DNA of 19,103 nucleotides from an uncultured bacterium (GCA_964619725.1 CAZUFC010000144.1:1-19103); one strand, 5' to 3'. Counted from the stretch's first letter, positions 1-16,004 are shown. Notes: a model not told the origin generated them from the letters alone. Made by a program: numbers and translations.

Positions 1-153
1 TACGCTTGAATTTGCGGGAATCTGAACGCTCTCACTACGATTTTGTATGAGAAATGCGGGCTAAGTCATTCATTTTCTCAGGTCCATTACAAAGGGTGAT
101 ATATTCGGTAGGACCGTAGCCTCGAAAGCAGCATTTTTAGCCAATACCTGAAG

Positions 154-287
154 AATTCAAAAAATTTGAATTAGAAGATAAAATTCCAATGTTCAAAAAA
201 TAATATAAATTCAATGATTTAAATAATTCTGCAAAAAGGTATTAAAATGTCAATTCAAAAAATTTGAATTATTTTCAAAAAATTTGA
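154..287. repeat. Repeated palindrome AATTCAAA-AAA-TTTGAATT (probable protein-binding sites)
   Basis: Identical 19-mers at 154-172 and 252-270, a third partial copy TTCAAAAAATTTGA at 274-287, and a half-site at 192-200, all in AT-rich DNA. Confidence 0.75.
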
Positions 288-348
288 CCCCACTTTTGAC
301 GTTTAAGCTAAAATATATCGAATGCAGATTCAAGTAAAAATGAAAAAA

Positions 349-414
349 CGCCTGACCACAAAAAAGAATCCTAACGCAGCATTATGGGAAATTCGCCGTT
401 TATGGAAAGGCGCT
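349..414. repeat. Truncated second copy of the REP/MITE-like element
   Basis: 374-406 (ACGCAGCATTATGGGAAATTCGCCGTTTATGGA) matches the reverse complement of 15594-15626 at 30/33 positions; bounded by imperfect inverted ends CGCCTGACCACAAA / TTTATGGAAAGGCG. Confidence 0.5.
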
Positions 415-515
415 GACTCAAGGCTGGTTATATGAATGTGTTATTTATTGTTTTCTTTAATCATGCAAATTTAAGAATATTTGCCATCATGAATAAGGGA
501 GCGCCGATTTGAACA

Positions 516-1871
516 TTACAGAACCGCCAGAATGCAGAGGTTTTGAGAAACGCGGGCTGGTTTTTGAATATCCCTGCGGATTTTTATGCTGAAACGGCAA
601 CCATCTGTCGAGGAGACAACCTTTGTGCCTTCGACATGGAGCAATTCGGCGTCAATATCCAGGAATTTACGGGACAAAAATATCTGTTTGATTATTTTCT
701 CTTTTTTCTCTGAATCAAAAGAAGGATGGATTTTTCTGATGGAGCGACCGGAAACGATTATGAAAAAGACAATTCGTCCATCGTATTCATGAGGCAGGTC
801 ATAAAAAACGAATTCATTTTCTTCTTCTGCGGGAGCGACCGGCGGATTATCACTCATTTGATCAAAAGGGGTGAGGTCCACGACAAGAAATTCGATATAA
901 TCTTTTAGGGTCTCAGAAGTCAGGCTGCGCAGAAGACTTCCACATCGTAGGGGTTCCGGGAGGAGCAAGTAACTCCGGAAATATTTTTCCAGGCGTCGGC
1001 GAAAGAGGGTTAAGCTCTGCCGTTGTTTTTTCATGTACTCAGCGAAAAGAGATGGTTTTTCAGTCGGGTCGAGCGTAAATCCCGGAGTTGAGAACCTTAT
1101 CAATTCAATTTCCTGCAGCAATTCGGCGGCAATCCAGTATATATCCGACTTTTCTCCATCGTTCGCCTTTTCCGCGTTATCCGCCAGGTGATTCAAGCCT
1201 GCGAGGAAATTACCGAGCATGAGTTCGTTCAAGGCTTTAAGGAACTGAAAAAACGCAAAATCACTTCTGTTTGCTTTAATTTTTTTTTCGTATTTCTTCA
1301 AAAGGGCTGCTGCGGCTTCATGCATAGCGGCTTCAAGTGCGTGAAAAACATGAATAAGAACGGGCCAGGATTTGTTTCGTATTCGTTCGAGCAGTTTTTT
1401 GCTTAAATGATAAGCCCCCATATAGTTTTGTTTTTCATAGAATCCTTTAAGCAGGGAAGCTTCATAAGGCAGAGCTTCTTCCGGGAATCCCGCAGCGTGA
1501 AAAATTAATGACGTTCTGTCGGCCAAATTGTACATGAATCCCCGTATCAATGCCTGAATTTCAAAAACAGCATGTTTTATCTCTTGCTCCCGTATTTCTT
1601 CCTTGAATGGAATATCAGCTAACTTGTCCGGGGATAATAAAGCTTCCGCATGTTTTGCCGGTTTTTCATTATGACTCATCAAAACATGCTGATAATACCT
1701 TTTTCGGCATTGAGCGCATACCAGCAAATGGGACTGCCGGGATTCGGGAAGCTTATCGAAGGTAGTTTTACATTTTTTATTCCATATTCTTTCGCATGGT
1801 TTGCGATTTTCATTCATCCAGATACTTAATAAATCAAAAGTCGATTCAAAGTGATTATCTTTTTTCACCAA
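516..1871 (-). CDS. Putative soluble zinc-binding (ZAS/zf-HC2-like) anti-sigma factor with a helical, TPR-like middle region and an unknown C-terminal domain
   Basis: 451-aa ORF starting at TTG 1871 with GGAG 9 nt upstream; overlaps the ECF sigma gene by 17 nt. The N-terminus has C26...H48-L-L-V-C52-A-Q-C55 (HxxxCxxC, nt 1707-1730), the hallmark of ZAS anti-sigma domains. No convincing transmembrane helix. Confidence 0.65.
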   Translation of the reverse strand: MVKKDNHFESTFDLLSIWMNENRKPCERIWNKKCKTTFDKLPESRQSHLLVCAQCRKRYYQHVLMSHNEKPAKHAEALLSPDKLADIPFKEEIREQEIKHAVFEIQALIRGFMYNLADRTSLIFHAAGFPEEALPYEASLLKGFYEKQNYMGAYHLSKKLLERIRNKSWPVLIHVFHALEAAMHEAAAALLKKYEKKIKANRSDFAFFQFLKALNELMLGNFLAGLNHLADNAEKANDGEKSDIYWIAAELLQEIELIRFSTPGFTLDPTEKPSLFAEYMKKQRQSLTLFRRRLEKYFRSYLLLPEPLRCGSLLRSLTSETLKDYIEFLVVDLTPFDQMSDNPPVAPAEEENEFVFYDLPHEYDGRIVFFIIVSGRSIRKIHPSFDSEKKEKIIKQIFLSRKFLDIDAELLHVEGTKVVSSTDGCRFSIKIRRDIQKPARVSQNLCILAVL

Positions 1872-2586
1872 TAGACAACTCTCCGCTTTTTTTGAAATTT
1901 TCCTTCAGGGATATCGCTTCATTGCTATTCATATATTCATCGAAACGTCGGCGCAAAGTTTCTCTGCCGCGATAAATCAGACTGCGAACCGCAGCAGCCG
2001 ATCTGTCGAGCAAAAGGGCTATCTGTTTATAGGATAAACCTTCTGCAAATGCCAGAATCGCCATTCTCTGCAGGCGGGGCAGTTTTGATATTTCCCCAGT
2101 AAGAAATTCCAGTTTCCTGACCGCTGATTCATAGGAAGCAGCATCTTCGATCATTTCTTTATTTCTCAGTGTTTCATAGTGTCCCGCAATTTGATCGAAT
2201 TTCCCTGTTTGTTTTTTTTCAAGGGCAGATGCGGTGATTTCTTTTCCTTTTTTCTTTAACCGTTTGAGGGCCATGTTTTTATCCATTCTCAGAATCCAGG
2301 ATATTCCCATTTTTTCTGAAACTTCCGGCGTCGCTTTGATATTTCTGAACAGGAAAGGTTGGGCCCATATTTTCAAGAATTTATTCTGTACCAAGTCGCG
2401 GGCGGCTTCTTCGTCTTCCATCAATCCGGCATCCTGCAGGTAACAAATGAAGCCGTATTTTCGATAGAGCTTTTCCCAGGCGGTTTTCGACTGTCCGGAA
2501 GAAATGCCTTTTCGGGAAATGAGTTCAAGGAGTTCGCCGGCAGTGGTTTCATGCCGCAGGTCTATGTCATCGCCGGTTCGGTTCAT
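1855..2586 (-). CDS. ECF-type (group 4) sigma-70 family RNA polymerase sigma factor
   Basis: Region 2 (AWEKLYRKY...EEAARDLVQNKFLKIW...SWILRMDKNMALKRLKK) and region 4.2 HTH (ISKLPRLQRMAILAFAEGLSYKQIALLLDRSAAAVRSLIYRGRETLRRRF); 243 aa; no regions 1 or 3. Confidence 0.92.
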   Translation of the reverse strand: MNRTGDDIDLRHETTAGELLELISRKGISSGQSKTAWEKLYRKYGFICYLQDAGLMEDEEAARDLVQNKFLKIWAQPFLFRNIKATPEVSEKMGISWILRMDKNMALKRLKKKGKEITASALEKKQTGKFDQIAGHYETLRNKEMIEDAASYESAVRKLEFLTGEISKLPRLQRMAILAFAEGLSYKQIALLLDRSAAAVRSLIYRGRETLRRRFDEYMNSNEAISLKENFKKSGELSIGEKR

Positions 2587-2587
2587 T

Positions 2588-2635
2588 TTATCCGGTTTCG
2601 ATCGTTAACATTTGAGGTTTCAGTCGATTTTTCAT
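2588..2635 (-). CDS. Candidate 15-aa leader peptide (MKNRLKPQMLTIETG) directly upstream of the ECF sigma gene
   Basis: AGGAAGG Shine-Dalgarno-like sequence (+ strand 2644-2650) lies 8 nt before the ATG at 2635; the TAA ends 1 nt before the sigma ATG, which has no obvious RBS of its own. Confidence 0.3.
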   Translation of the reverse strand: MKNRLKPQMLTIETG

Positions 2636-2688
2636 ATCATTAGCCTTCCTTCAGCATATTCTTTTTTCACGTAAAAAATCACGGCGCT

Positions 2689-5600
2689 TCAACCGGAAAT
2701 TTTAAATGCTCCCCAATACACCGGTTCCTCGTATTTGGGATTCGAGCGAATCTGGAGCAGAGCTTTTCTCAATGCTTTTGCCGGTGGAAGATCGTCAACC
2801 ATCAGGCAGGAATAAAATATTTTCATTACTTCGCAGGAGCATTCATCATCTATTTTCCACAAGCTGCTGACGACTTTCCGGGCGCCTGCGGCAATGAAAC
2901 CGGCAGACAGTCCTATGGTTTCATCGGGCAATCCGTCGACAGAGACGATACCTGATTCACATGCTGACAAAACGACCAGACAGGTATCAGGCATTCTCAG
3001 TTCCCTCAGTATTTTTCTCAATGTCCACATGTCGGTTTTATTGCAATCATCTTTCATTCCGATAATAACGGAACGGTCATGATTCGTTACCCGGCGAACG
3101 GAAATTTTCTCGCAGGAATTCTTTGCCGGTTCCGATTTCAGTGTTTTACCCGAGGGCGAGGTCGAATTGCAGCTTTCATCATACGCTAAAAGGATGCTGG
3201 ATTCATACGCATCATCCGCATTAAATTCAGCATGACACGCCATATGAACATAAGTCGACTTCTTGAGTTTCTCAGCAACATTTGCAATAGTCGCCTCCCG
3301 GCCCCGGAGCACGGTTTTTTCATCGAATAAAGCGGCAATGTAGTCGATTTCGCGGCGGCTCCAGTACAGGGCTCTTGTCGGGTCTGACACAGCCGTTAAA
3401 GAACGGGAAACGTTGCGGAAGATTTTTTCATCGTTTTCCGGATATAGCAGAGTGAAAGAAGGCGCATATCTGATGTGATAATGATCGATGAGAAACCGTC
3501 GCCGTCCGTTTTCCATCCGGTTCATCAGGTGAAGAGGGATGATGTGCAGTCCTTTGTGAGGCATGAAAATGAGTTCGTCGATTTTTCGTGACCGGATGAA
3601 ATCATGGATGGGTTGAAAAAGCTGAGAATAGAGTTCAGCGGTTAATTCAATCATTTTCCGGTTCCACAGCAGTCGCAGGTCCAGGTTATTTCGATCTGAC
3701 CGAAAGAGAGCGTAAGCCTGGAACCACCGGCGAAGTATCCGGTTGAGCTGCTCATCTGTAAATTCATCAATTATAAATGTTTTTTCAACGGGACGACCAG
3801 GCGTTCCCGCCAGTAACGATATTGCCGAACCGTATTTCGTGACGTTGAAAGCTGCAGCAGCCGTCCGTCCTTCGCAGGAAAGGCAATTCAAAAACCTTTC
3901 ATAAGGAATATCGCTGCATAGAAACCCCGGTTCGTAACCCCGTATCCCGCGTATCAACTCTTCCAACTCCTTCTTCAAGGCTCGTGATTCCTCCGCTGTT
4001 TCAAACAAAGTTTTTCCCGCAGCCGCTTCCTCGGATTGCTCTATCCATATTTCCCGAAGCCGTCCGATTAGCCGCTCATAATGACGCTTGTCCTGGCCTT
4101 TCAGTCGCTCGAATTCCTGTTTGTCTCCCAGGCATTTTTCTTTTAACAATCGAGTCTTTCCCTTTTCAAGTGATTCAAGAGCGCCTTTGAAATCACCGAT
4201 TGCAGAACAGCAATACGAGGCTTTTGAAAATTGCAGGGCTGTTTCTTCTATCCTGGTCGATTCAGTCTGTATGCATGCCTCCTCCTTTCGTATCAGTTCA
4301 TCCAGACAGCTTATTTCCGAGAAATAATCAAGCGCTTCAACATATTTCCCCTCACGCATGCATGAATCCGCCATTTCAGACAGAGTCGTCAACATTGCTG
4401 ACGGATGACCATATAGTCTCTGGATACTGAGCGCTTCCTTGTAATATCGCCGGGATTCCCGGGCCATCGCGTTTCTATCGCCTTCTTTTCCGTCAATGCA
4501 GGAGCGAGCCAGTCCCAGCATGGTTTTGGAGTATTGAACGGGATAATTCTCCAGACTGAAAACCTCCAGGGCTGATTTATAATTTCTGAACGCTCCTTCG
4601 CTATTTTCTAGCTGCTGCTCTTGCCGTAGCTTCAGGAATGCATCGCCGATTCCAAGCCGGGCTGCGGCCCAATAATAGGGGAAAGCCGTCCGGGTGAAAA
4701 CCGAGAGCGCTGATTCAAAATGTTCGATCGCTTTTTCCAGGTTGCGGTTTTTATTACCTTTTGAACGATTCTTGTAGTAATTCGCAAGGTTCGTTTGAAG
4801 CATGGCCCAGTGAAAGGGAAAAGAATCCTTTGTTCTTATCTGAAGGGCTTCATGACAGCAGTGAATGGCTTTTTCCATATTTTGCGATTGATTTCCATAT
4901 TTTCTCTTAGCGTAAGCTACGGCAATGTTTTGAAGGGTATCAGCGCGGGGAAGGGGAAAATATTTCAATTTTCTGACGGTCAGAGTTTCCCTGCAGTTTG
5001 ATATCGCTCTTTCTATATTCTCGGTGCGGTCTCCCTTAATTCTTTTTTTGAGAGCGATGGCCAGGTTATGTTTGATGTTTGCCCACTCGACAGGAAAAGC
5101 TCGTTTCGTGCACACCGCCAGGCCTGCTTCGAAGTGCATGACCGCTTTTTCAATGTTTTCGCATCGTTGACCTTTCGTCCTTCTTAAATAGGATGTCGCC
5201 AGGAGGTTCTGGATCGATGCCCAGTAGAAGGGAAAAATGTTACGCCGGCATATGTTTTGAGCTGATCGGCAATGAGCGATGGCCGTTTCCCTGTTCTCCG
5301 CGTTGTTTCCTGCAATTCTCTCGGAATAGGCAATAGCCGTATAATAATGAGTATTAGCCTTAATGAAGGGAGAGCAGGATGCCGAAATCTCCATGGTGCG
5401 CTGAAAGCGGTCGAGCGCTTTTTCGATATTATCGATTCTTGTGCCCAGGGGATTCTGAAGCAGAAAGCGTCCCGCTTTGTTGTTCAGTTCACACCACAGT
5501 ATCGCATCTTTTTCAGGTTCGACAGTTTTCAGCAATTCGTCCAGTTCAACTATTTTTTGTTTTAATTCACGCGGCGAACGAAAAGACAAAGCTTTCTCGA

Positions 5601-5901
5601 TACTGTTTTCCAGGCGTTGAGCCGCAGCGGCGCCGGGTAATTCCCGATTGAGGTATGAGCAGGCGAAGAAAGCTTCGTCCATTCCGATTCTCAAGCATAC
5701 TTCAATAAGTTGGATCGTCTCGGAGATTTTCTGGATCATATGATAGTCATGAGCGGTCCATGCTAGTTTTCTTTTTGTTTCCATTCTATCGAGGAATGAT
5801 TCGCTGAGTATGGAAGGGTTGTTTCGTACGATACCATATCGAACAAGTCTCAGGTGAGAGCAGGCGAGTTGTCGGATAAGCTGTTCAGTAATGAATGGCA
5901 T
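2689..5901 (-). CDS. TPR-repeat CHAT-domain (caspase/HetF-like, clan CD) cysteine protease
   Basis: Tandem ~47-aa TPR-like repeats (ENIEKAIxxxxxALxVxTxxxFPxxWAxxxxNLAxAY), a coiled-coil linker, then CHAT motifs FMPHKGLHIIPLH, VHMACHAEF (catalytic His, nt 3232-3234), VVLSACESG (catalytic Cys, nt 2959-2961), GFIAAGARKVVSSLWKIDD and C-terminal PVYWGAFKISG. No signal peptide. The start codon is uncertain because there is no clear RBS at 5901. Confidence 0.93.
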   Translation of the reverse strand: MPFITEQLIRQLACSHLRLVRYGIVRNNPSILSESFLDRMETKRKLAWTAHDYHMIQKISETIQLIEVCLRIGMDEAFFACSYLNRELPGAAAAQRLENSIEKALSFRSPRELKQKIVELDELLKTVEPEKDAILWCELNNKAGRFLLQNPLGTRIDNIEKALDRFQRTMEISASCSPFIKANTHYYTAIAYSERIAGNNAENRETAIAHCRSAQNICRRNIFPFYWASIQNLLATSYLRRTKGQRCENIEKAVMHFEAGLAVCTKRAFPVEWANIKHNLAIALKKRIKGDRTENIERAISNCRETLTVRKLKYFPLPRADTLQNIAVAYAKRKYGNQSQNMEKAIHCCHEALQIRTKDSFPFHWAMLQTNLANYYKNRSKGNKNRNLEKAIEHFESALSVFTRTAFPYYWAAARLGIGDAFLKLRQEQQLENSEGAFRNYKSALEVFSLENYPVQYSKTMLGLARSCIDGKEGDRNAMARESRRYYKEALSIQRLYGHPSAMLTTLSEMADSCMREGKYVEALDYFSEISCLDELIRKEEACIQTESTRIEETALQFSKASYCCSAIGDFKGALESLEKGKTRLLKEKCLGDKQEFERLKGQDKRHYERLIGRLREIWIEQSEEAAAGKTLFETAEESRALKKELEELIRGIRGYEPGFLCSDIPYERFLNCLSCEGRTAAAAFNVTKYGSAISLLAGTPGRPVEKTFIIDEFTDEQLNRILRRWFQAYALFRSDRNNLDLRLLWNRKMIELTAELYSQLFQPIHDFIRSRKIDELIFMPHKGLHIIPLHLMNRMENGRRRFLIDHYHIRYAPSFTLLYPENDEKIFRNVSRSLTAVSDPTRALYWSRREIDYIAALFDEKTVLRGREATIANVAEKLKKSTYVHMACHAEFNADDAYESSILLAYDESCNSTSPSGKTLKSEPAKNSCEKISVRRVTNHDRSVIIGMKDDCNKTDMWTLRKILRELRMPDTCLVVLSACESGIVSVDGLPDETIGLSAGFIAAGARKVVSSLWKIDDECSCEVMKIFYSCLMVDDLPPAKALRKALLQIRSNPKYEEPVYWGAFKISG

Positions 5902-6031
5902 GTTGCATTAAAAGGCGTGAAAGAGACAACTTTGTTGAATCAGGAAAAAAAGGACAAACGTGCCGTTGATTTTCAAAGAGTAGTTTTTCTCGAATGTTGA
6001 AATCCATATTTTCAAGGATTTTTCCTTTGTT

Positions 6032-9000
6032 TTATTCCTCGCAGCATGAGCTTTGAGGAGTCCTGTCATTTAAGGAAAGTATCATCCAGTCGCTTTTATC
6101 ATCGGAATCCTGACCCGGGAATTTTCGGCTCAGAGACGAACCTGACTGCAGCGGAGCCGCCGGATACACTATTTCGTTAACCGGGTCCGAGGCATCGCCC
6201 GGGAGATTATTAGTATTGGGAAGACTGTAGAGCAGGGTATCCACGGTTCTGTTCGCTTTATCCAGCAATCTCACGCCGTCTGTTCTGAAAAGTCCGTTGT
6301 AGAGAGTCAAATGAACCGCTAAATCCGGGGGGTATCCGCAAATATCCGTCACAAGGGGTCCCCGATAAGGTAATAACCGCAGGGTTGTATGATTGAACCC
6401 CTGGGCAATACTGCATCGGTGGAAAAGAATGGTCCGGCAGATTGTATTCTGAATCCTGAAATGTCGATGGGTGTATCGCCGGGGTTGTACAATTCTATCC
6501 ATTCAAAACCTGAATCGTTATTTTTTTCATCATATAAGACTTCATTGATAACGGGGTGCGCTATTTTATATTGGCGGATTTCATCAGCCGGCAGCGCTCT
6601 GTTGAAGAGCCGAACATTGCTGATATGTCCGTTAAAGAAATCGACCGGAGTAGTATCATAGTAACCGCAGCCGATCCAGACCGGTTGGGAAGATTGGTAA
6701 ACTTCGTCAATGAATGTATTTCTGTCCATAAGGTCTCCGTTTACGTACAACCTGTTCTCCGTTCCGTCGTAAACACCGGCTAAATGATATTTCTGTCCGA
6801 TCAAGAGCGGTTTGCCGGCGACGGTTCCTCCATCTTCCCAGAAGGTGAAGAGCGGACCGTCGTCATTCGGGTTTCTGGCCGTCAGGCTCCAGACCGGAAA
6901 TTCAAATATTCCGTTAGGACTGTCCGGGTTAGTCCCTTTGGTCATGATGGAGGCAGAGGCTGCGTTCCAGGAGACAGGAAGGATACAGGCCATGACCGTC
7001 ATTTCACCCAGGAAGTCCAGATGATAACCGTCGTTAACGGCAATTTTATCGTCTATTCCGAAAAACCTTAATCCGTATGAACTCCATTGCGGGTATCCGT
7101 TCAACAGCCCGTTGTAGCCATTTCCGGAGCCGTCGTGAGCCGTATTTCCTGAAGTTTCTTCGAGTTTCCAGGACGCCGCGAGTAAATCGGCATGTTTTTC
7201 TACCTGATCGGGATCGAGTGCTGATTTATAATATTTAAAATCGTCGATTTTCCCATGGAAGAAACAGGAGGGGGCGTCATTCCAGAAACCGCATCCGACG
7301 TACATAGGCCATGATGAATTTTCGACGTTTACGGCGGATTCATTACGGTCCGCTTCAATGCCGTCGACATATAAAATAGTGGAATTTCCGTCGTGGACTG
7401 CCGCCAGGTGATGCCATTGGCCCGTGGAGAGGACGAAAGACGCTTTCACCAACCCATCGGTTTCGCCGAAACAGAAGGATGGCCCGCCTCCATGGTCCAT
7501 GGCGAAAAGGTTCCAGGATGAAAACTCTCCGTCGACCCGACCGCCTTTGGCAGCCACGGATACCTGGTCGCCAGGCCAGTCCAGGGGAAAAACCCAGGCT
7601 TCAACCGTCATTTCCCCGTGGAAGTCCAGGTCGTTGCTGTCGAGTACTTCAATATAATCGGGAAGGGGGGCCGGATTGAACAGCAGAGCATCCTTCAATA
7701 CGCCGTCGACCCATTGAGGGTCCCCGAAGAGTGCACCTGATGAGCCGTTGATGGAATAATCGCCGGCTGATATTCCCGACCCTTCATCGAGGCGCAGCCA
7801 CGAATGAAGCGCTTTTGATCTGGCGGCTGTTTGTTGAGAATTTAATGCATAATGGTAAAGATTCACTTCATCAATGATGCCGTTAAAGAAGGCTGCAGGG
7901 GAGTCAAACCAGAATCCGCTTCCGATGTATAACGGCCACGATGAAGATTCTGCTGCTTCATTACATTCATTCCTGTCCGTTTCCACCCCGTCCACGTACA
8001 GAACGGTCGCGTTTCCGTCGTATGTTGCGACTAAATGATGCCATTCATTAATTGTCAGAGGTTCCTGTGCCTTGACCAGTCCGATGTCCTCTTCGAAACA
8101 GAACGATGGGCCGCCGCCATGGTCCTTTGCCGTCAAAGTCCATACGGGAAATTCATCTCTCAGTTTTCCTCCTTTTGCAGCAATGGAAACATGATGGGAT
8201 AGAAGTTCCCCTGGCCGAATCCAGGCTTCGACAGTCATTTCGCCTTTGAAGTTCATGCTGTCGTTATGGGCGATTTGAATGTAACTCGGCTCCAGAGACC
8301 CGTTGAAATTCAGCGCTTTTCCGAAAAGTCCGTCGACCCGCAGAGGATTACCCACAAGAATTCCATTATTCCTGTTATCCGTGGCATCAAACGCTATGGG
8401 GCCTGTTTCTTCAAAACGCCATGAACCTGCCGTCGCTAGGGCGTTATCTGCTATTTGTGCGGGGCTGAGAGCCTTATCATGCAACTTTACTTCATCGATC
8501 ATTCCCTGAAAGAATCCTGTCGGCGAATCATACCAGAAACCGCTGCCGATATAGAGCGGCCAGTAAGAATTTTCAACGACAACGGCTTCCTCGTTGCGAT
8601 CTGTTTCAACTCCGTCGACATACAATACTACGGCTGAGCCGTCATAAGTCGCTGCCAGATGATACCGGCGTCCTGTTTGCAACATAAACGGCGATTTTAC
8701 GAATCCCTCGTCCTCACCGAAACAGAAACTTGGTCCCCCTCCATGGTCCATCGCAAAAAGGTTCCATACGCTGAATTCACCTCCGACCTGGCCGCCTTTG
8801 GATGCTGCAGAAATCTGGTCTCCGATCCATCCTGTCGGTAAAACTACGGCTTCTATCGTCATTGCGCCGTTAAAATTCAACGTATCATCAGAAGGTATTT
8901 CGACCCAGTCGCCGTCGCCGTCTAACGAGAGTCCGCACCCCTGGAAACCGTCGGACCAACCGGAATCCCCCTCAAGAAACCCGTGATTATCGTTGCCTGA

Positions 9001-9783
9001 ATAATCATAAACCGTTTCACCCTCGCAGGCATCGAAACGCCATTCACCGCCTGAAGCAAGGTTGCAATCATTCGATTCGCCCAGGGTCGGAGAACCCTTG
9101 ATGTATTCAAACGGCATCTCGAAAGAACATGTAAAAACGCTTTCCCCTTCAACACAACCTGAAGGAACCTCAAGGAAACCGTCAGGCGCTTCAGGGTTTG
9201 CGGGATTCCCCCAATAAACGCCGCAAATCCAATAATCATAATCTTCTACGCTTTCACCTGAACAGCCGGGACTCAAATGACCGATGCCGATCCAATCCGC
9301 ATCATTATTCAAACTGAACTCATAATTCGAATCGCCAGCGTTGCTCAAAACCTTGTATTCCCAGGAAGAGAACCAGCTATCCTCCGGCAGCAACTCAAAC
9401 GCCGTCGCCGATCCATCATTATCGCTCTCAACCAGGTAAAATTCACCCGGCAAATAGAATTCCCACGATCCGTAATTATATACTTCCAACCATTCCGTAT
9501 CATCCTCCGGCGAAGAACCGTGATAAAGAACTTCACTGACGATGAGCCTGTTTTTCAGGGATAGTCCTGCACCTGGGGCTTGCGCCTTCTCTTCCTGACG
9601 TTCGGTAACATTTTCATGTTCCCGGACCGGTATATATTTCCCTTCGGGATTCAGAGGAATAGCAGCCGTCGCGCATGCCGGGCCGTTGACGTTATCGATT
9701 TCAACAGCAGAAAAAGCGGGCTGAAGAATGAATGAAATACAGAGCGCCGTAAGACAAAAAAGAACGCCGGAAACATTTTTCAT
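6032..9783 (-). pseudogene. Secreted multi-domain protein (signal peptide - lamin tail domain - 4x LamG-like jellyroll - lamin tail domain), ~1250 aa, interrupted by a 1-nt frameshift at ~6355-6363 (real lesion or sequencing error)
   Basis: Likely start is ATG 9783 (GGAG RBS; signal peptide MKNVSGVLFCLTALCISFILQPAFSA). LTD motifs IVSEVLYH..EWLEVYN and VINEVLYD..EWIELYN. Four LamG-like modules (WRFD..D.SGN...MTVEAW...HLAATYDG..LYVDG..F.G.IDEV). ORF 6349-9825 stops at YLIGDPL*, while the overlapping frame continues PLVTDICGYPPD...RTDGVRL...SGSSLSR, collinear with the paralog's LTD (IGESGVRDVNGFAPD...RTDGIRL...SGSSLSR). Confidence 0.85.
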
Positions 9784-9934
9784 GAAATATCTCCAAACTT
9801 CAAAAATCAGCAAAATGCCGCACATTTTCCAATGGCTTTCCTTTATCTCGCACCTTGCTGCTCAAACGGTTAAAAGAAAACGTCGTCGGTTTCGCCTGAT
9901 GTTCGCTTCGGAAAAAAACAGTATTCCTGAACTC

Positions 9935-9964
9935 ATTATAATATCATTTTCACAGGTCGATCAA
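9935..9964 (-). promoter_or_regulatory. Candidate housekeeping sigma-70 promoter for the 9783 gene
   Basis: TTGATC-18 nt-TATAAT on the minus strand, about 150 nt upstream of ATG 9783. Confidence 0.35.
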
Positions 9965-10090
9965 ATGCCGGCAGAACAAAAATAATAATGCAGCGATTGA
10001 TCAAAGATGGCGGAAACGCTTCTGAGACCCGTAATTGAGTCGAATGTTCCTGCAGCTTCTTTGCCCTTTTTGCTGATCCCCCTATTTTTA

Positions 10091-13000
10091 TTACGGAGTA
10101 AAGCCGGGATTTTCATTCGCATATAGCATAACTTCTGAAACGTTCAGAGCTTTGTTGAACATAAAGACGTCGCTGATGCACCCGGAGAAGAAATCGACCG
10201 GCATTGTATCGTAACAGCCGCATCCTATCCACAGGGGTTGCTGAGACTGGTAAGGTTCGCCCTTGAACGCATTTTGATCCTGCAAGACTCCGTTTACGTA
10301 GAGTTTGACGTATGTTCCGTCATAGACGGCAGCTAAATGGATAGGTTCGTCAAGAGATAATGGCGGAGCTGCGACCGCGCCTCCGTCTTCCCAGAAGGCA
10401 AACAGCGGTTTATCGTCGTACCAGTTTTTAGCGGCAAACAACCAGACGGGAAATTCTGAGATGCCGCCAGGACTGTCCGGGTCTGTTCCTTTAGTGAGAA
10501 ATGATGTCGTCGCAGAATTCCAGGAGTAGGGAATAATTTCAGCCATGACCGTCATTTCACCCAGGAAGCCGAGATAATATCCATGTGGGATGACGATATA
10601 ATCGGAGTAACCGTTGAACTCTACGCCGCAGGAATTCCATACCGTGTCGCCGATGAACGTACCGTCATATCAATTGCCGGAACGGTCATGAGCGACAGAA
10701 CCCGATCCGTCGTTGAGAGGCCAATGACCGGCCAGGCAATCGGCATGTTTTTTAATATTGTCGGCGTCAAGCGCCAGGGAATAATATTTGAAATCGTCAA
10801 TTTTTCCGTTGAACCAGCCTGTAGGACCGTCGTTCCAGAAACCGCAGCCGACGTATAGCGGCCAGGTCGAGTTTTCGGGGGGGACTGGAAGTACATTTCT
10901 GTCAACTTCATTGCCGTTCACGTAAAGAATGGTTTGTCGGCCGTCGCATACCGCGGCCAGATGATGCCATTTGCCCCGCTGAAGAACGAAAGGCGCTTTA
11001 ACCAAACCGTGATCTTCTCCGAAGCAGAAGGATGGTCCGCCTCCATGGTCGACTGCGAAAAGGTTCCAGTCGGAGAATTCGCCGTCGACTCGTCCGCCTT
11101 TGGATGCTGCTGAAATCTGATCGCCCTGCTGCTCGTAAAGGAAAATGTGAGCTTCAACGGTCATTTGTCCCAGGCATTGCAGATTCCCGGAATAGGGGAC
11201 TTCAACGTAATCCTGCACCGGCGAGGATTTGAATTCCAGGGCTCTGTTCAACCGACCCTCTGTCCAGGAAGGGTCTCCGATCAGTTTTCCCGGAAGGCCG
11301 TTTCCTGAAGCATCGGCGGCGTATTTGCCTGAATTTTCGTCGAAACGCAGCCACAATTCAAGCGATTGGGCGCGTGCCGCGATAGATTCTGAGTCCAGCG
11401 CATCATTATACAATCTTACTTCATCAATCGCTCCTTTGAAAAAACACGTGGGCGAGTCGTACCAGAACCCGCTTCCGATATACATAGGCCAGTCCGTGTT
11501 TTCCGCTTCTACCTCACCTTCGTGCCTGTCGACCTCCTCGCCGTTGACGTATAATACGGTTTTCTGTCCGTCGTACGTTGCGGCCAGGTGATGCCATTGA
11601 TAGGGTTCAAGACTGAAGGGCGCTTTTACTAATCCGTCGTCTTCACCGAAGCAGAACGACGGTCCGCCCCCATGGTCCGTGAAGAAAAAACTCCAGGACG
11701 GAAATTCCCCTCGCACCTGGCCCCCTTTCGCTGCAATCGCGGTTTGATTTCCCTGCGGACCGTCGGCATAGACCATGGCTTCGATCGTCATCATGCCTTG
11801 GAAATCAAGCGTGTCGGAATCCGGAAAGACAATGTAATCCTTATCGCCGTCGAAATATACGGCGCTGCCAATGCGACCTTCGGTCCAGGCTGCACTGCCC
11901 TTCAAAGCGCCGTGGTTCTTGTGTCCCGATGAATCGAACGCCGACCCGCCGCTGCACTCATTAAAACGCCAGAGCCCTGAACAGAGATGATGTGAAGACA
12001 GGGGAGACCTTAATTCTGCGGAAAGTATCTCCCAGTCAGAGGCACGATCGCTGTCGAAACCAGGTCGTAACCGGCTTAAACTCGATCCGGATTGAGGAGG
12101 TGCAGCGGGATGAACTATCTCATAATCGCATGCCGGAATGCAGTCGTCTCCGGGTAGATTATTGACATTGGGATAGCTGTAAAGAAGGGTATCTTCTGCC
12201 TGCCCTTCAGGATTCACTAGCCGGATGCCGTCCGTCCTGCTGAGGCCGTTGTAGAGGCTCAACGCCGCCTTATGATCGGGTGCAAATCCATTAACGTCCC
12301 TTACGCCGGATTCGCCTATCAGGAAATATCCGCCAGGCGGAATAACGCTGCCCGATGGAAGTTGAATTCCCCAGGAAAAAGAAGCGCCTCCAGCCTGAAT
12401 CTCATAACCGGAAATATCCGCAGCAGCCGGCGACAGATTGATCAATTCTATCCATTCGTATCCCGTATCGTCGCCGGTTTCGTCATAAAGCGCTTCATTA
12501 ATGAATATGCAGGATTCACCTTCCGCATATCCTGTTTCATATATTTCAGCATCGCTCAACGCCCTGTTGTAAAGCCGGATGTCACTTATACTGCCGTTGA
12601 AATGACATACGGCCCGTCCGTCATAGTAGCCGCATCCCGCCCAGACAGGTTCCGTTGAAATGTATACTTCGCCGGCCCAGTTTCTGCAATCTTTCAGCAG
12701 TCCGTTCACATACAGTTTCGTCGTGCAACCGTCGTAGGTCGCTGCAATATGATAATCCTTGTTCAACTCCAATGGCTCGCCCAAAACCGTTCCACCGTCC
12801 TCCCAGAATGCGAAACATACTTTGCCGTCCTGGTGTCGTCTGGCGATTATGCTCCAGACGGGAAATTCAGAAATGCCGCCCGGCGCCGACGCACCGGTTC
12901 CTTTGGTCATTGCAAACACCAGATCGTCCGGCCAGGCATAAGCCTTTAAATTCAACATAACCGTCATTTCCCCCAGGAAATCAAGCTGGTATCCTGAATC

Positions 13001-15280
13001 TATCTCAATCCTGTCGTCAAATCCATCGCATATTATGCTCGAATTTTCCCAGCGAGCCCCGTTTTTCAACTTACCGTTAAAACCGTTCCCGGAAATATCA
13101 TGAACCGTGTCGCCGCTCCCATCATCACAGGGCAGATGCGCAGACAAGAGAGCTGCATGAGAAGATATCAACTCGGGGGTCAACGCAAAATTATACGCCC
13201 TTACATCGTCGATTATACCTTTGAAATGACGATTCCAGTATTTGCAGTCGCCGATGTAAACATTATTCGAATTCGAATTGATTTGAACGGTGCAGACTTT
13301 TTCATCGACCTGAATTCCGTCAAGGTAGAGCGACAGCTTTTGTCCATCATATACACCCGCTGCATGATGCGGACAGCCCGATGCAATACGCGCCCGAACC
13401 CCTTTCCAGGGCCAGGGATCATACAGCCCGTCATAAATCTCAAAACGTAAGAATCCATCGTCAATCCATAGAAAATAGGCGTTGCTTTTCCCGATTATCA
13501 TGTAGCCGCCGTCGTATACTTCGTAAGGCATTATCCAGGCTTCCAGGGAGATCACGTCCGTCATGTCAAGACTTGGAGAATCCTGAATCTCTATATGCTG
13601 ATTAATTCCATTGAAACGAATTGCAGTACCCAGTAAGCCCTTAACCCGTTTGGGATTATGATGCAATATGCCGGTATTGCCCGCTCCGGAATAATCAAAC
13701 GCCTCAGCGCCGTTCCGTTCATCCAACCGCCACCATCCGGCAAGTTCGCCCGTACATTCCGTCGATGCCGTATCGAACGCAGCCCCGCGACATTCGCAAT
13801 CATAGTAATCCCACATACCCAAACGTCGTACATAATAAAATGCCTCCGTTTCAGCAGTATATTCGCCAGGCATCGCCGGCTCGAACTCGAATTCCAGGGA
13901 AATTTCACTCACATTCGTTTCCTGGATGTACTGAACATCAACCAACTCTCCAAATGGGTCTGTGAGAAATATATACAGGTACAACTCAGTATAATCAGTC
14001 TGCTCGACACCTGATAATTCAGCGCTTGCTTCGACATTTCCGCACGAAACCAATATATCGGCATCAAAATACAAAAAATCGCACCATTCATTGCAATAAC
14101 AGTTGGAAAAATTATAACACGGGTCTGAACCGCAGAGACACTCATCCACATTGTTCCAACCGTCATAATCGCAGTCTTCATATTCATATCCGTTAAGGTG
14201 TGCGCAAGGATCGGAGAGTTCGCACCACCATTCGCAATCAAAACACGTCCAGGAAGGATCGCACGGGTCCGAACCGCAACTGCATTCCTCTGCGTTTGTC
14301 CAGCCGTCGTCGTCGCAATCCTCACCGCCGTACTGGTCCAGATACTCGCAGGGAGCGTTACCGCACCACCATCCGCACTCAATGCAAACCGATCCTTCGT
14401 CACAGGGATCACAACCGCAATTGCATTCTTCCTCATTCGTCCAACCGTCACCATCACAGTCCTCACCGCCGTATTCATCCAGGTATTCGCATGGAGCGTT
14501 TTCGCACCACCAGTTGCAGTCTACGCATAAGGAATCCACGTCGCATGGATCGGACCCGCAATCACATTCCAGTTCGTTAGTCCAGCCGTCTTCATCACAA
14601 TCTTCGTCGCCGTATTCATCCAGGTATCCGCAAGGAGCGTTGTCGCACCACCATTCGCAGTCCAGGCACAAAAGACTGTCGTCGCATGGATCGCTGCCGC
14701 AGTTGCACTCTTCCGCATTTGACCAGCCGTCGTCGTCGCAGTCTTCATCCTCATAACCGTCAAGATGGTTGCAGGGATCGCCCGAATCGCACCACCAATC
14801 GCAATCTATACACCAGGAATCAGGATCGCAGGGGTCTGAACCGCATCCGCATTCCACTTCATTCGTCAAACCATCCTCATCGCAATCCTCCTCTTCATAT
14901 CCCCCCATATGCTCGCAGGGATCATTATCGCACCACCAATCGCAATCAATACATAGTGAACCCGAATCACATGGATCGGACCCGCATGCGCATTCCTCGC
15001 CGTTCGACCATCCGTCGTCGTCGCAGTCCAGTTCCTCGCACACGCCGACGCAAGGGTCTTCATCGCAACACCAATCGCAGATGTCCTCAGTCAAACTGAA
15101 ACCGCCGGATTCCTCGCCGATCTCATTTTGCCCCGCTTTTCCCAGTACATTGTTATTTTGCCCGTCTATCAAAAAAAATATGAATAATGCTGCAACCGAT
15201 ACAGTCGACACCCGTTTCAAGACTTGTCTCTTCTTCAATTTCAAACCTGCCTGACTGGAATCCGTCTGGAAATCGACCAT
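10091..15280 (-). pseudogene. Large exported protein (N-terminal signal/anchor - 7 Cys/Asp-rich repeats - probable Ig-like domain - 2x LamG - lamin tail domain - 3x LamG), ~1729 aa, interrupted by one in-frame TGA at 10670-10672
   Basis: ATG 15280 with GGGAGG RBS; basic then hydrophobic N-terminus. Reading through the TGA gives ...AHDRSGN*YDGTFIGDTVWNSCGVEFNGYSDYIVIPHGYYLGFLGEMTVMAE..., in frame with ORF 10091-10555 and collinear with the paralog (AHDGSGNGYNGLLNG...GYHLDFLGEMTVMAC). Confidence 0.85.
14096..15079 (-). repeat. Seven tandem 45-48-aa Cys/Asp-rich repeats with a bacterial thrombospondin type-3-like Ca2+-binding core
   Basis: Consensus CxWWCx(2-3)xPCxxLxxYxxEDCDxDGWxNxxECxCGSDPCDxxSxCxD, with 8 conserved Cys per unit; aa 68-395 of the 15280 ORF. 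Confidence 0.9.
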
Positions 15281-15593
15281 TTTTACAACCTCCCTTTTAA
15301 AATGTCTCCGTTTAATTCAATGAAGCAGTCATATCAGGTAACCTTTGCCGGCGTCGTGAATAACGGCTGAAACTCTCAAGACTCCCGTTCGATTTCATTC
15401 AAGAATGCTTCTTGCCGTTCACGCTCGCATACGGGTTCCTCTCTTAATAACAAATCCGAAATTTTTCATTTGTCGCGCGGATTTTTATATTTTTTTTGGA
15501 CTGATCAAACCTGGGTTATACTTTTTTGAAAACTTTTGGCAGTTTGTTTCAATAATCGGTGTCGGTATCGCAATCGAAACTAAATGGTTTTTG

Positions 15594-15721
15594 TCCATAA
15601 ACGGCGAATTTCCCCCAATACTGCGTCAGGCTGCGGATTTGCTCAGTCAACGTATATGCATTACCCCTGCCTCGCAAATCCTTGTCTTAATTGCTTTAAG
15701 TTAAATTCGCCCGTTTATGGA
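15594..15721. mobile_element. REP/MITE-like long imperfect palindrome
   Basis: Outer arms TCCATAAACGGCGAATTT (15594-15611) and AAATTCGCCCGTTTATGGA (15703-15721); inner arms GGATTTGC (15635-15642) and GCAAATCC (15674-15681). A 33-nt piece recurs inverted at 374-406 (30/33 identical). Confidence 0.55.
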
Positions 15722-16004
15722 TCAAAAACCCAAGTGGCTGTCCAGCATTAAATTTTGAATCGAAATTCGAGTTTATGGACAGGCGCTAAATGGGAAAATT
15801 CAGAATAATTGTAACCTCTAAAGACCCCTTTTTTATCAATGCTTTTTTGATTGAGTGATCAGACTTTCAAGAATTGATATCTTTTGTTTCGGATGCTAGT
15901 CTGGAAAATGTTCGCTGAAGTGTCGGCCGGTGTATGAACAATGAAGCGAGTATTCTGTCAACATGTCATTTTAGATTTTTTTTTGATGAAACAGGAGGCT
16001 GGAG

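Follow-up and report, generated by a model that had tools for sequence, protein, structure and literature searches.

A TPR-CHAT protein gene beside a divergent sigma factor and a soluble anti-sigma-like protein in an uncultured CSSED10-310 bacterium: a candidate protease-gated transcription switch

We analyzed a 19,103-base stretch of DNA, hereafter the window, which is a complete contig (C144; CAZUFC010000144.1 of assembly GCA_964619725.1) from the 9.17-Mb genome of an uncultured microbial-mat bacterium of the candidate phylum CSSED10-310. This host genome (G000) is in 344 contigs, with a completeness of 90.9% and a contamination of 6.5%. Near one end of the window lie the three adjacent genes that are the subject of this analysis, all on the minus strand, which encode a TPR-CHAT protein (P0001), a divergent extracytoplasmic function (ECF)-type sigma factor (P0002), and a soluble anti-sigma-like protein (P0003) (Table 1). 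An earlier reading of this DNA (the original prediction) had described such a co-oriented trio, and the open reading frames (ORFs) that we found agree with it to the base. The P0001 and P0002 genes are spaced 102 nt apart, and the P0002 and P0003 ORFs share 17 nt. By Kyte-Doolittle analysis, no 19-residue segment in any of the three proteins scores 1.6 or more, a crude test that is the sole basis for the words soluble and cytoplasmic as used here. A PADLOC scan gave no match for any of the three, an Rfam scan of the window returned zero matches, and family scans and an array search of the window found neither a cas gene nor an array of clustered regularly interspaced short palindromic repeats (CRISPR), in line with the original prediction.

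Table 1. Features of the window, with positions counted from its first base (aa, amino acids)
Feature	Protein size or residues	Window position	Strand	Basis
P0001, TPR-CHAT protein	1070 aa	2689..5901	minus	ORF, Pfam
TPR repeats of P0001	about aa 190-620			Pfam
CHAT domain of P0001	aa 755-1070	2692-3639	minus	Pfam
HMACH codons of P0001, catalytic His candidate within	H886 to H890	3232..3246	minus	alignment A3
Catalytic Cys candidate of P0001 (LSACES), codon	C981	2959..2961	minus	alignment A3
P0002, divergent ECF-type sigma factor	243 aa	1855..2586	minus	ORF, Pfam, profile alignment
P0003, anti-sigma-like soluble protein, TTG start	451 aa	516..1871	minus	ORF, motif, alignment, models
Putative anti-sigma domain of P0003	aa 1-66	1674..1871	minus	alignment, complex model
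Candidate zinc ligands of P0003, motif codons	H48, C52, C55	1707-1730	minus	alignment
Candidate zinc ligand of P0003, codon	C26	1794-1796	minus	alignment
TPR-like helical domain of P0003	aa 95-260	1092..1589	minus	AlphaFold2 blocks, pLDDT 75-90
EIELIR of P0003, [DET]xExxR motif	aa 254-259	1095..1112	minus	family alignment
C-terminal alpha/beta domain of P0003	aa 325-451	519..899	minus	AlphaFold2 domain model
Giant LamG gene, smaller of paralogous pair	1158 aa	6349-9825	minus	Pfam
Giant LamG gene, larger of paralogous pair	1536 aa	10670-15280	minus	Pfam
Tandem repeat of 141 bp, 3.3 copies, within larger LamG gene		14272-14734		
Short ORF, LamG-giant fragment	156 aa	6032-6502	minus	
Short ORF, LamG-giant fragment	154 aa	10091-10555	minus	
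Interspersed repeat between divergent LamG and 506-aa genes		15480-15850		blastn
Interspersed repeat, fragment		370-406		blastn
506-aa ORF	506 aa	16005-17525	plus	no Pfam, NCBIfam, or PADLOC match

P0001 scores 157.8 bits with the Pfam CHAT model (PF12770, clan CD; cut-off, 24), aligned over profile positions 5 to 288 of 289, and it also matches the Pfam models TPR_12, TPR_1, and TPR_2. In an alignment of 13 TPR-CHAT proteins, in which 12 homologs are aligned full-length to P0001 (alignment A3), residues H886, H890, and C981 are invariant in all 13; either of the two histidines may be the catalytic one. Near C981, G984 is invariant as well, and E982 and S983 are nearly so. We found both the histidine motif (HMACHA) and the cysteine motif (LSACES) that had been claimed for this protein, and the invariance of the His/Cys dyad argues for catalysis. 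P0001 thus looks like a catalytically competent TPR-CHAT protein, and its claimed cytoplasmic location is consistent with the lack of a hydrophobic segment in the crude test described above. A profile comparison with PDB sequences paired P0001 with a 991-aa CHAT chain, 8rot_B, at an E value of 5.5e-8, over the CHAT core only. When genome contigs were queried with the single P0001 sequence, no close relatives were found, whereas a query with the 13-protein alignment did retrieve relatives. The top full-length relative beyond the searched phylum set (L067, positions 7974-11255) aligns with P0001 residues 11 to 1070 at an E value of 2e-137 and lacks a sigma-like ORF within 8 kb; it is labelled as coming from an uncultured Gemmatimonadota bacterium, which is odd given its closeness to P0001.

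P0002 matches the Pfam model Sigma70_r4_2 with 47.9 bits (cut-off, 25.7), and no match to the region 2 model, Sigma70_r2, was found in this protein at an E value of 0.01 or below. A profile made from three paralogs (P0002 and two proteins from the host genome) aligns to residues 22 to 186 of Escherichia coli RpoE (1or7) with an E value of 4e-7, and since this alignment extends over both the sigma2 and sigma4 domains, we regard P0002 as a probable divergent ECF-type sigma factor. The ECF assignment made in the original prediction therefore stands in part: sigma4 is recognized by Pfam and the RpoE alignment agrees, whereas the region 2 model and the cut-off of the ECF superfamily model (considered below) do not support it. 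A word-based homolog search with P0002 returned P0002 alone.

The third protein, P0003, carries the predicted N-terminal HxxxCxxC motif as HLLVCAQC at aa 48 to 55. Residues C26, H48, C52, and C55 (the CHCC set) are conserved in all four full-length members of the P0003 family, and the N termini of the homologs line up with the TTG start. P0003 has no match to a Pfam or NCBIfam family. Among 10 HxxxCxxC proteins of the modules described below that were scanned with the zf-HC2 model, two had sub-threshold matches (17.8 and 18.6 bits, compared to a cut-off of 22.2). A search of 1.84 billion representative proteins gave five matches, P0003 itself included: two paralogs from the host genome (487 and 453 aa), a 210-aa protein with the C-terminal part only, and one foreign protein, which is Ala-rich, 448 aa long, and identical in layout. 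No P0003 homolog was found in 60 other genomes, and a P0003 profile had no match among PDB sequences at an E value of 1 or below; as judged by these searches, the P0003 family is almost unique. In the host genome, the 210-aa protein P0007, at the end of contig C11 (112401-113036; L066), consists only of the block containing ExxR and the C-terminal alpha/beta domain, with both the zinc domain and the TPR-like part absent. By the tests applied, P0003 is of the classical zinc anti-sigma type, with a predicted resemblance to the N terminus of the DdvA protein and not to the Csx30 inhibitor, both of which are compared with it below.

We also modelled P0003 with AlphaFold2, using an alignment of five sequences, and obtained a mean predicted local distance difference test score (pLDDT) of 67. 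The N terminus is helical with low confidence in this model, aa 64 to 92 are disordered, and a helical, TPR-like domain follows. Foldseek matches of the whole protein to TPR structures were weak (best E value, 0.19; probability up to 1.0; target template modelling score of about 0.7), and the nearest ESM Atlas clusters, with a score of 0.82 that is to be read as a lead only, are Planctomycetota proteins with zf-HC2 and TPR domains. The segment from about aa 261 to 323 is mostly a lower-confidence linker, with stretches at 284 to 323 whose pLDDT is below 50. The C-terminal domain modelled on its own had a pLDDT of 76.5 and a predicted template modelling score of 0.72; a Foldseek search of the PDB with this domain returned nothing at an E value of 0.001 or below, the best VIA wide match was a generic beta-sandwich (Z, 4.8; root mean square deviation, 3.2; 74 aligned), and we assigned the domain no fold.

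The most conserved block of the P0003 family is a [DET]xExxR motif, EIELIR in P0003, in which E256 and R259 are two of just 9 columns that are invariant in all five members. It is located at the terminus of the TPR-like domain, immediately ahead of the low-confidence linker, and it fits the separase cleavage site (S/D/E)xExxR (PMC11506125). As a general cleavage motif, [SDET]xExxR was rejected, with 11 occurrences seen and 9.8 expected in 24 module anti-sigma proteins, and this lack of enrichment means that EIELIR may be merely structural. We consider it a speculative lead to a cleavage site, for the P0003 family only.

Structures of complexes between sigma factors and zinc anti-sigma proteins have already been solved. 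We modelled P0002 (3-row alignment) together with aa 1 to 130 of P0003 (4-row alignment), alongside three controls. The interface score, ipSAE, was 0.61 (0.61, 0.67, and 0.59 in the individual runs), compared to 0.00 for the best control; 58 of 80 solved complexes reach the mark used for this score, as do 2 of 110 mismatched pairs. At least 66% of the contacts were common to the runs, the partner pLDDT was at least 55, and the confident interface joins sigma4 (P0002 residues 155 to 219) with residues 7 to 71 of P0003, the zinc motif included. Thus, the zinc-motif N terminus of P0003 is predicted to bind sigma4 of P0002, and the binding that the original prediction had proposed is supported as a prediction. 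Since sigma/zinc-anti-sigma structures exist, the high score may reflect likeness to a known class and is not proof that this pair binds.

A phmmer search of six-frame ORFs of the host genome at an E value of 1e-70 or below identified nine P0001-like TPR-CHAT loci (C144, C184, C116, C128, C153, C43, C18, C240, and C217). In six of the nine (C144, C184, C217, C153, C43, and C240), a sigma-like gene and an HxxxCxxC ORF are adjacent; the neighboring sigmas of C184 and C43 score above the curated Pfam cut-off, and those of C217, C153, and C240 score below it (E values of 9e-5 to 2e-3). These six modules vary in gene order and strand, and the persistence of the linkage despite this variation suggests a link at the protein level, beyond mere co-transcription. 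At C184 (L061) and C217 (L062), the modules most similar to that of the window, the sigma gene sits between the other two genes and on the strand opposite to theirs; it is convergent with the P0003-like gene and divergent from the CHAT gene. At C217, a frameshift or an assembly error has divided the CHAT gene into two ORFs that overlap (7015-8316 and 8276-9256). Over the six modules, the normalized similarity matrices of the CHAT domains, the sigmas, and the HxxxCxxC proteins are concordant (Spearman coefficients of 0.69 to 0.74; exact Mantel P of 0.003 to 0.01), with C184 and C217 closest, C144 next, and C153 paired with C43 in all three matrices. This concordance argues that the trios duplicated as units. 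An interspersed repeat specific to the host genome, described below, is found on five of the six module contigs (all except C240), which argues that the modules come from a single organism.

The host genome has 13 same-phylum relatives, none closer, and nine of the 13 contain a P0001 homolog at an E value of 1e-5 or below. We compared ten regions from eight of these genomes, and found a trio of CHAT gene, sigma-like gene, and HxxxCxxC ORF in five (G003, G008, G005, G012, and G013). Next to the CHAT genes of G011, G001 (three regions), and G004, no pair of sigma-like and HxxxCxxC ORFs was found. Of the four of these sigmas scanned with Pfam, that of G003 passes the threshold (48.3 bits with Sigma70_r2), those of G012 and G013 score weakly, and that of G005 has no match. 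In G013 (contig C327, L048), two divergent TPR-CHAT genes (6349-13199 and 17991-19349) lie next to one sigma-like/HxxxCxxC pair.

Among species-representative genomes, a query with alignment A3 retrieved 551 relatives, and the best 80 entered a survey of their neighborhoods. Within these 80, a sigma-like ORF lies within 8 kb of the CHAT gene at 38 loci, and 25 have both a sigma and an adjacent HxxxCxxC ORF. At 16 of these 25 loci, a hydrophobic segment is absent from the HxxxCxxC protein and from the N terminus of the CHAT protein; these are 13 loci labelled as Chloroflexota, L108, and two from CSSED10-310. Candidate culturable carriers of the membrane-less module include relatives of Litorilinea or Caldilinea (L082 and L112) and Rubrobacter marinus (L130), in which a sigma gene adjoins the CHAT gene and no HxxxCxxC ORF was detected. 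The order in Chloroflexota is sigma, HxxxCxxC protein of about 200 aa, and TPR-CHAT protein of about 975 aa, in one direction. In contrast, the anti-sigma proteins of the other nine loci (from Bacteroidota, Acidobacteriota, Zixibacteria, and one from CSSED10-310) have a membrane helix, and several of the CHAT proteins at these loci have an N-terminal one. These 25 loci therefore fall into two classes, one membrane-linked and resembling a split DdvA, the other membrane-less, and by the hydrophobicity test the module in the window is of the membrane-less class. The linkage of the trio is non-random. Conservation of the linkage, as the original prediction had anticipated, was thus found in six of nine paralogous loci, five of eight genomes of the phylum, and 25 of 80 loci elsewhere.

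We propose that the trio would act as a CRISPR-independent, fully cytoplasmic, protease-gated sigma/anti-sigma switch, a reading to which we assign a probability of roughly 0.45. The CHCC zinc domain of P0003 is predicted to keep the ECF-type sigma P0002 inactive. P0001 would itself be inactive until a cytoplasmic cue meets its TPR array, or meets the TPR-like and C-terminal domains of P0003, and would then cut P0003, most likely in the linker at aa 64 to 92 or in that at about aa 261 to 323. The remnant of P0003 would be degraded, and P0002 would be freed to transcribe its regulon. We infer cleavage by the CHAT protein and release of the sigma because of the analogous Csx29-Csx30-CASP-sigma system, the proposed self-cleavage of DdvA, and the CalpL-CalpT-CalpS system. 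Since P0002 and P0003 have no membrane segments, the classical site-1/site-2 route would be inapplicable, and a cytoplasmic protease is plausible as the input. We lean towards placing the protease at the input and not at the output of the switch, from the robustness of the linkage and from the putative promoter hexamers at C184 and C217 described below, neither of which is strong.

Several findings weigh against the proposed switch. P0002 scores 38.5 bits with the NCBIfam ECF superfamily model TIGR02937, under its cut-off of 42.9; several paralog and ortholog module sigmas are below Pfam cut-offs, and that of G005 lacks any match. P0003 does not match zf-HC2 (PF13490) even at an E value of up to 1. 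The sigma detector used in the survey, a hidden Markov model seeded from module sigmas and iterated once, is not independent of its seeds. The CHAT genes on C116, C128, and C18 and the G011 ortholog have no sigma alongside, so a neighboring sigma is not needed for such proteases to work. The anti-sigma proteins of different modules have only the zinc domain as common ground, and no common candidate cleavage motif was found among the 24 examined. The alignments behind the fold and complex models are very shallow (3 to 5 rows). Finally, the contig terminus is only 515 bases past P0003, which puts downstream neighbors out of view.

The strongest rival, which we consider unlikely, is that the sigma and the anti-sigma by themselves make up a soluble zinc switch of the ordinary kind, operated by RsrA-like thiol oxidation or by the sensor domains of P0003 itself, and that the CHAT protein is its cargo, an output or co-regulated effector, for example, a cell-death or defense protease. 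All four zinc ligands are conserved in the P0003 family, and redox release of zinc, which the original prediction had set aside, is a live rival. The same-direction order of the Chloroflexota loci resembles an autoregulated ECF operon with a downstream target, whereas in the window the CHAT gene is the first in the row, and at C184 and C217 it diverges from the sigma gene and is preceded by TTGACA-N17-TAnAAT-like, housekeeping-type hexamers (identified by eye and weak as evidence). A CHAT protein carried as cargo would also fit the three of nine CHAT paralogs without a sigma and the sizeable additional domains of P0003, but the linkage persists through rearrangement of order and strand, and the published precedents put the protease upstream of the sigma (PMC11506125; PMC10028731; bioRxiv 10.1101/2023.06.23.546230).

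An improbable alternative is that the CHAT protein acts in some other way, either by cutting the sigma or other proteins or as a non-catalytic TPR scaffold or anti-anti-sigma that titrates P0003. There is precedent for the former in a prokaryotic caspase (PCaspase) that cuts a putative sigma factor (bioRxiv 10.1101/2023.06.23.546230), and the TPR-type interaction surfaces on both P0001 and P0003 would suit the latter. The invariant dyad in 13 of 13 proteins points instead to catalysis, and nothing in these data indicates the sigma as the substrate.

It is very improbable that P0001 is an accessory of a type III-E (Cas7-11) system located past the end of the contig or at another site in the genome, which would make the trio a true Craspase module. 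The host genome does have type III-like cas loci, with RAMP matches on C183, C78, C10, and C67, Cas1 on C183, C67, and C78, and a 593-aa ORF bearing two RAMP domains on C78. None of the 13 CHAT-bearing contigs of the host genome has a RAMP or Cas1 match, and these include C43, where the module lies in the middle of a 60-kb contig whose neighboring ORFs were not family-scanned individually. The module was therefore found to be cas-free, as had been claimed, with the caveat that the window stops 515 bases past P0003 and that the genome is 90.9% complete. Cas7-11 proteins are about 1300 to 1700 aa long, far above the largest RAMP-bearing open frame in the host genome (779 aa). At 17 membrane-less-type loci of other genomes, there are 17 non-CHAT ORFs of at least 700 aa, and none of the six largest that were scanned is a Cas protein; these six are a Calx-beta protein, two Ile-tRNA synthetases, an ABC/glycosyltransferase protein, a GH113 protein, and a BNR protein. 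P0001 scores 46.4 bits with the Csx29 model (NCBIfam NF041237), compared to a cut-off of 300 and a genome-wide best of 46.9, and its similarity to Csx29 (E value of about 1e-9) covers the catalytic core only, 8rot_B being about equally distant. By these comparisons, P0001 is not Csx29. The idea that the module is an ancestral form of Craspase is unsupported, with P0001 no closer to Csx29 than to 8rot_B and P0003 not Csx30-like.

That the adjacency is meaningless and the genes are independent is also highly improbable: ECF sigma genes are abundant in large genomes, but six paralogous loci, co-diversification, and recurrence over phyla argue against chance.

The remainder of the window is occupied mainly by a paralogous pair of giant LamG genes (Table 1). 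Each encodes four Laminin_G_3 domains and an LTD domain, the larger adding bacterial TSP3 repeats and containing a tandem repeat; the two proteins match each other with 984 bits, and both have hydrophobic N termini resembling signal peptides. Two short ORFs on the same strand are fragments of LamG giants: the 154-aa ORF matches the 1158-aa protein with 365 bits, and the 156-aa ORF, with about 102 bits to the 1536-aa protein, overlaps in a different frame with the 3' end of the 1158-aa gene, whose LTD domain is truncated; this suggests a frameshift or a decayed duplicate. The original prediction had named the LamG genes as a possible regulon of the sigma. LamG paralogs are present on 11 to 12 contigs of the host genome, only two of which (C144 and C116) have a CHAT neighbor; in G013, a LamG-like ORF lies near the module, at the contig end (L048). 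No shared ECF-type promoter was found in the intergenic regions, and a scan of window positions 1 to 6600 for sigma-70 sites gave 14, compared to 10.6 ± 2.8 expected, a difference too small to be informative. The regulon link to the LamG genes is thus unsupported.

A sequence common to C144 and C184, upstream of the LamG gene and the C184 sigma gene, was considered as a regulon motif and rejected, since it is a genome-wide interspersed repeat. This repeat gave 839 high-scoring segment pairs with blastn, on 251 of the 344 contigs, and its strict core, GT[AG]TAACCC-N3-8-TGATCAGTCC (typically GTGTAACCCCGGTTTGATCAGTCC), has 76 occurrences. It is probably MITE-like (resembling miniature inverted-repeat transposable elements) and probably a contributor to the fragmentation of the assembly. 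The 506-aa ORF on the plus strand has 76 matches among host ORFs, itself included, at an E value of 1e-5 or below, with a near-identical copy on C76 (771 bits); these matches place it in a large paralog family specific to the lineage.

Two settings are known in which a protease releases a sigma factor: one is the membrane, with site-1/site-2 proteolysis and DdvA as cases, and the other is the cytoplasm, where CRISPR signals drive the process (Craspase and CalpL). If the proposed switch is real, it would be a third, CRISPR-independent route, in which a free-standing cytoplasmic TPR-CHAT protease opens a soluble zinc anti-sigma. It would also give a biochemical role to CHAT genes of Chloroflexota, Acidobacteriota, CSSED10-310, and other phyla, and provide a compact protease-to-transcription module usable in synthetic biology. 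With its six co-diversified copies, the host genome offers a natural experiment on the specificity of protease, substrate, and sigma. A bolder extension, which we regard as a long shot, is that the host has at least six mutually insulated, cytoplasmic, caspase-gated switches, each with a TPR sensor-protease and an anti-sigma substrate of its own, that form an intracellular pattern-recognition array and turn different cytoplasmic cues, which may be phage or stress proteins, into distinct transcription programs, and that P0003 is cut at the invariant, separase-like ExExxR.

Several known systems invite comparison. Among more distant ones, the ECF54 group has genes for CHAT, subtilase, and carboxypeptidase proteins in the neighborhood of the sigma gene, the presence of the CHAT gene being conserved, and proteolytic control has been proposed (PMC8999054). 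That review describes ECF54 without an anti-sigma factor, whereas the window has a zinc-motif anti-sigma-like protein; among nine window proteins scanned with Pfam, none matched a subtilase or a carboxypeptidase. In a computational study of the EACC2-caspase conflict systems, caspase-fold proteases were found to be coupled genomically with a TPR protein and an ECF sigma (Kaur et al. 2021, PMC8195603). The defining features of these systems are the EACC2 domain and a TPR protein of the DUF1822 type, and the Pfam matches of P0001 to P0003 include neither. In the CalpL-CalpT-CalpS system, a cytoplasmic SAVED-Lon protease cuts an anti-sigma and frees a sub-complex containing the sigma (bioRxiv 10.1101/2023.06.23.546230). 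CalpL differs from P0001 in being of the Lon type and activated by cyclic oligoadenylate from type III CRISPR, and the system has no CHAT domain, TPR, or zinc motif.

In Craspase, which comprises Cas7-11, Csx29, Csx30, and CASP-sigma, cleavage of the Csx30 inhibitor by Csx29 relieves the inhibition of CASP-sigma (PMC10028731). The window resembles this system in its cytoplasmic TPR-CHAT protein, ECF-like sigma, and soluble protein that is predicted to bind and inhibit the sigma. In contrast to Craspase, no Cas7-11 or CRISPR RNA was found at the module, P0001 fails the Csx29 model, and P0003 is of the zinc type; the activating signal cannot be target RNA. The DdvA/DdvS pair of Myxococcus xanthus shares with the window an ECF sigma, a CHCC zinc anti-sigma domain, and a TPR-CHAT part with a His/Cys dyad, and its CHAT domain is proposed to trigger release of the sigma by cutting a flexible anti-sigma linker (PMC11506125). 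DdvA is a single transmembrane polypeptide with a periplasmic TPR-CHAT part, and intramembrane proteolysis by RseP follows (PMC11506125). In the window, the zinc domain and the TPR-CHAT part are on separate proteins, neither with a membrane segment, and, as another difference from the DdvA/DdvS locus as far as it is described there, no island of cas genes or of a cyclic oligonucleotide-based antiphage signaling system (CBASS) adjoins them. The design of the module would therefore be that of a split, membrane-less counterpart of DdvA/DdvS, and its logic would be analogous to those of Csx29-Csx30-CASP-sigma and CalpL-CalpT-CalpS. In a search of full-text literature, exclusive of subscription journals and supplements, we found no report of a system that combines a stand-alone cytoplasmic TPR-CHAT protein, an ECF sigma, and a soluble anti-sigma of the zinc type. 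DdvA/DdvS is the closest system in design and Craspase the closest in logic, and what the window adds is the phylum CSSED10-310, a six-fold expansion with co-diversification, and a large, near-orphan anti-sigma family with TPR-like and C-terminal domains.

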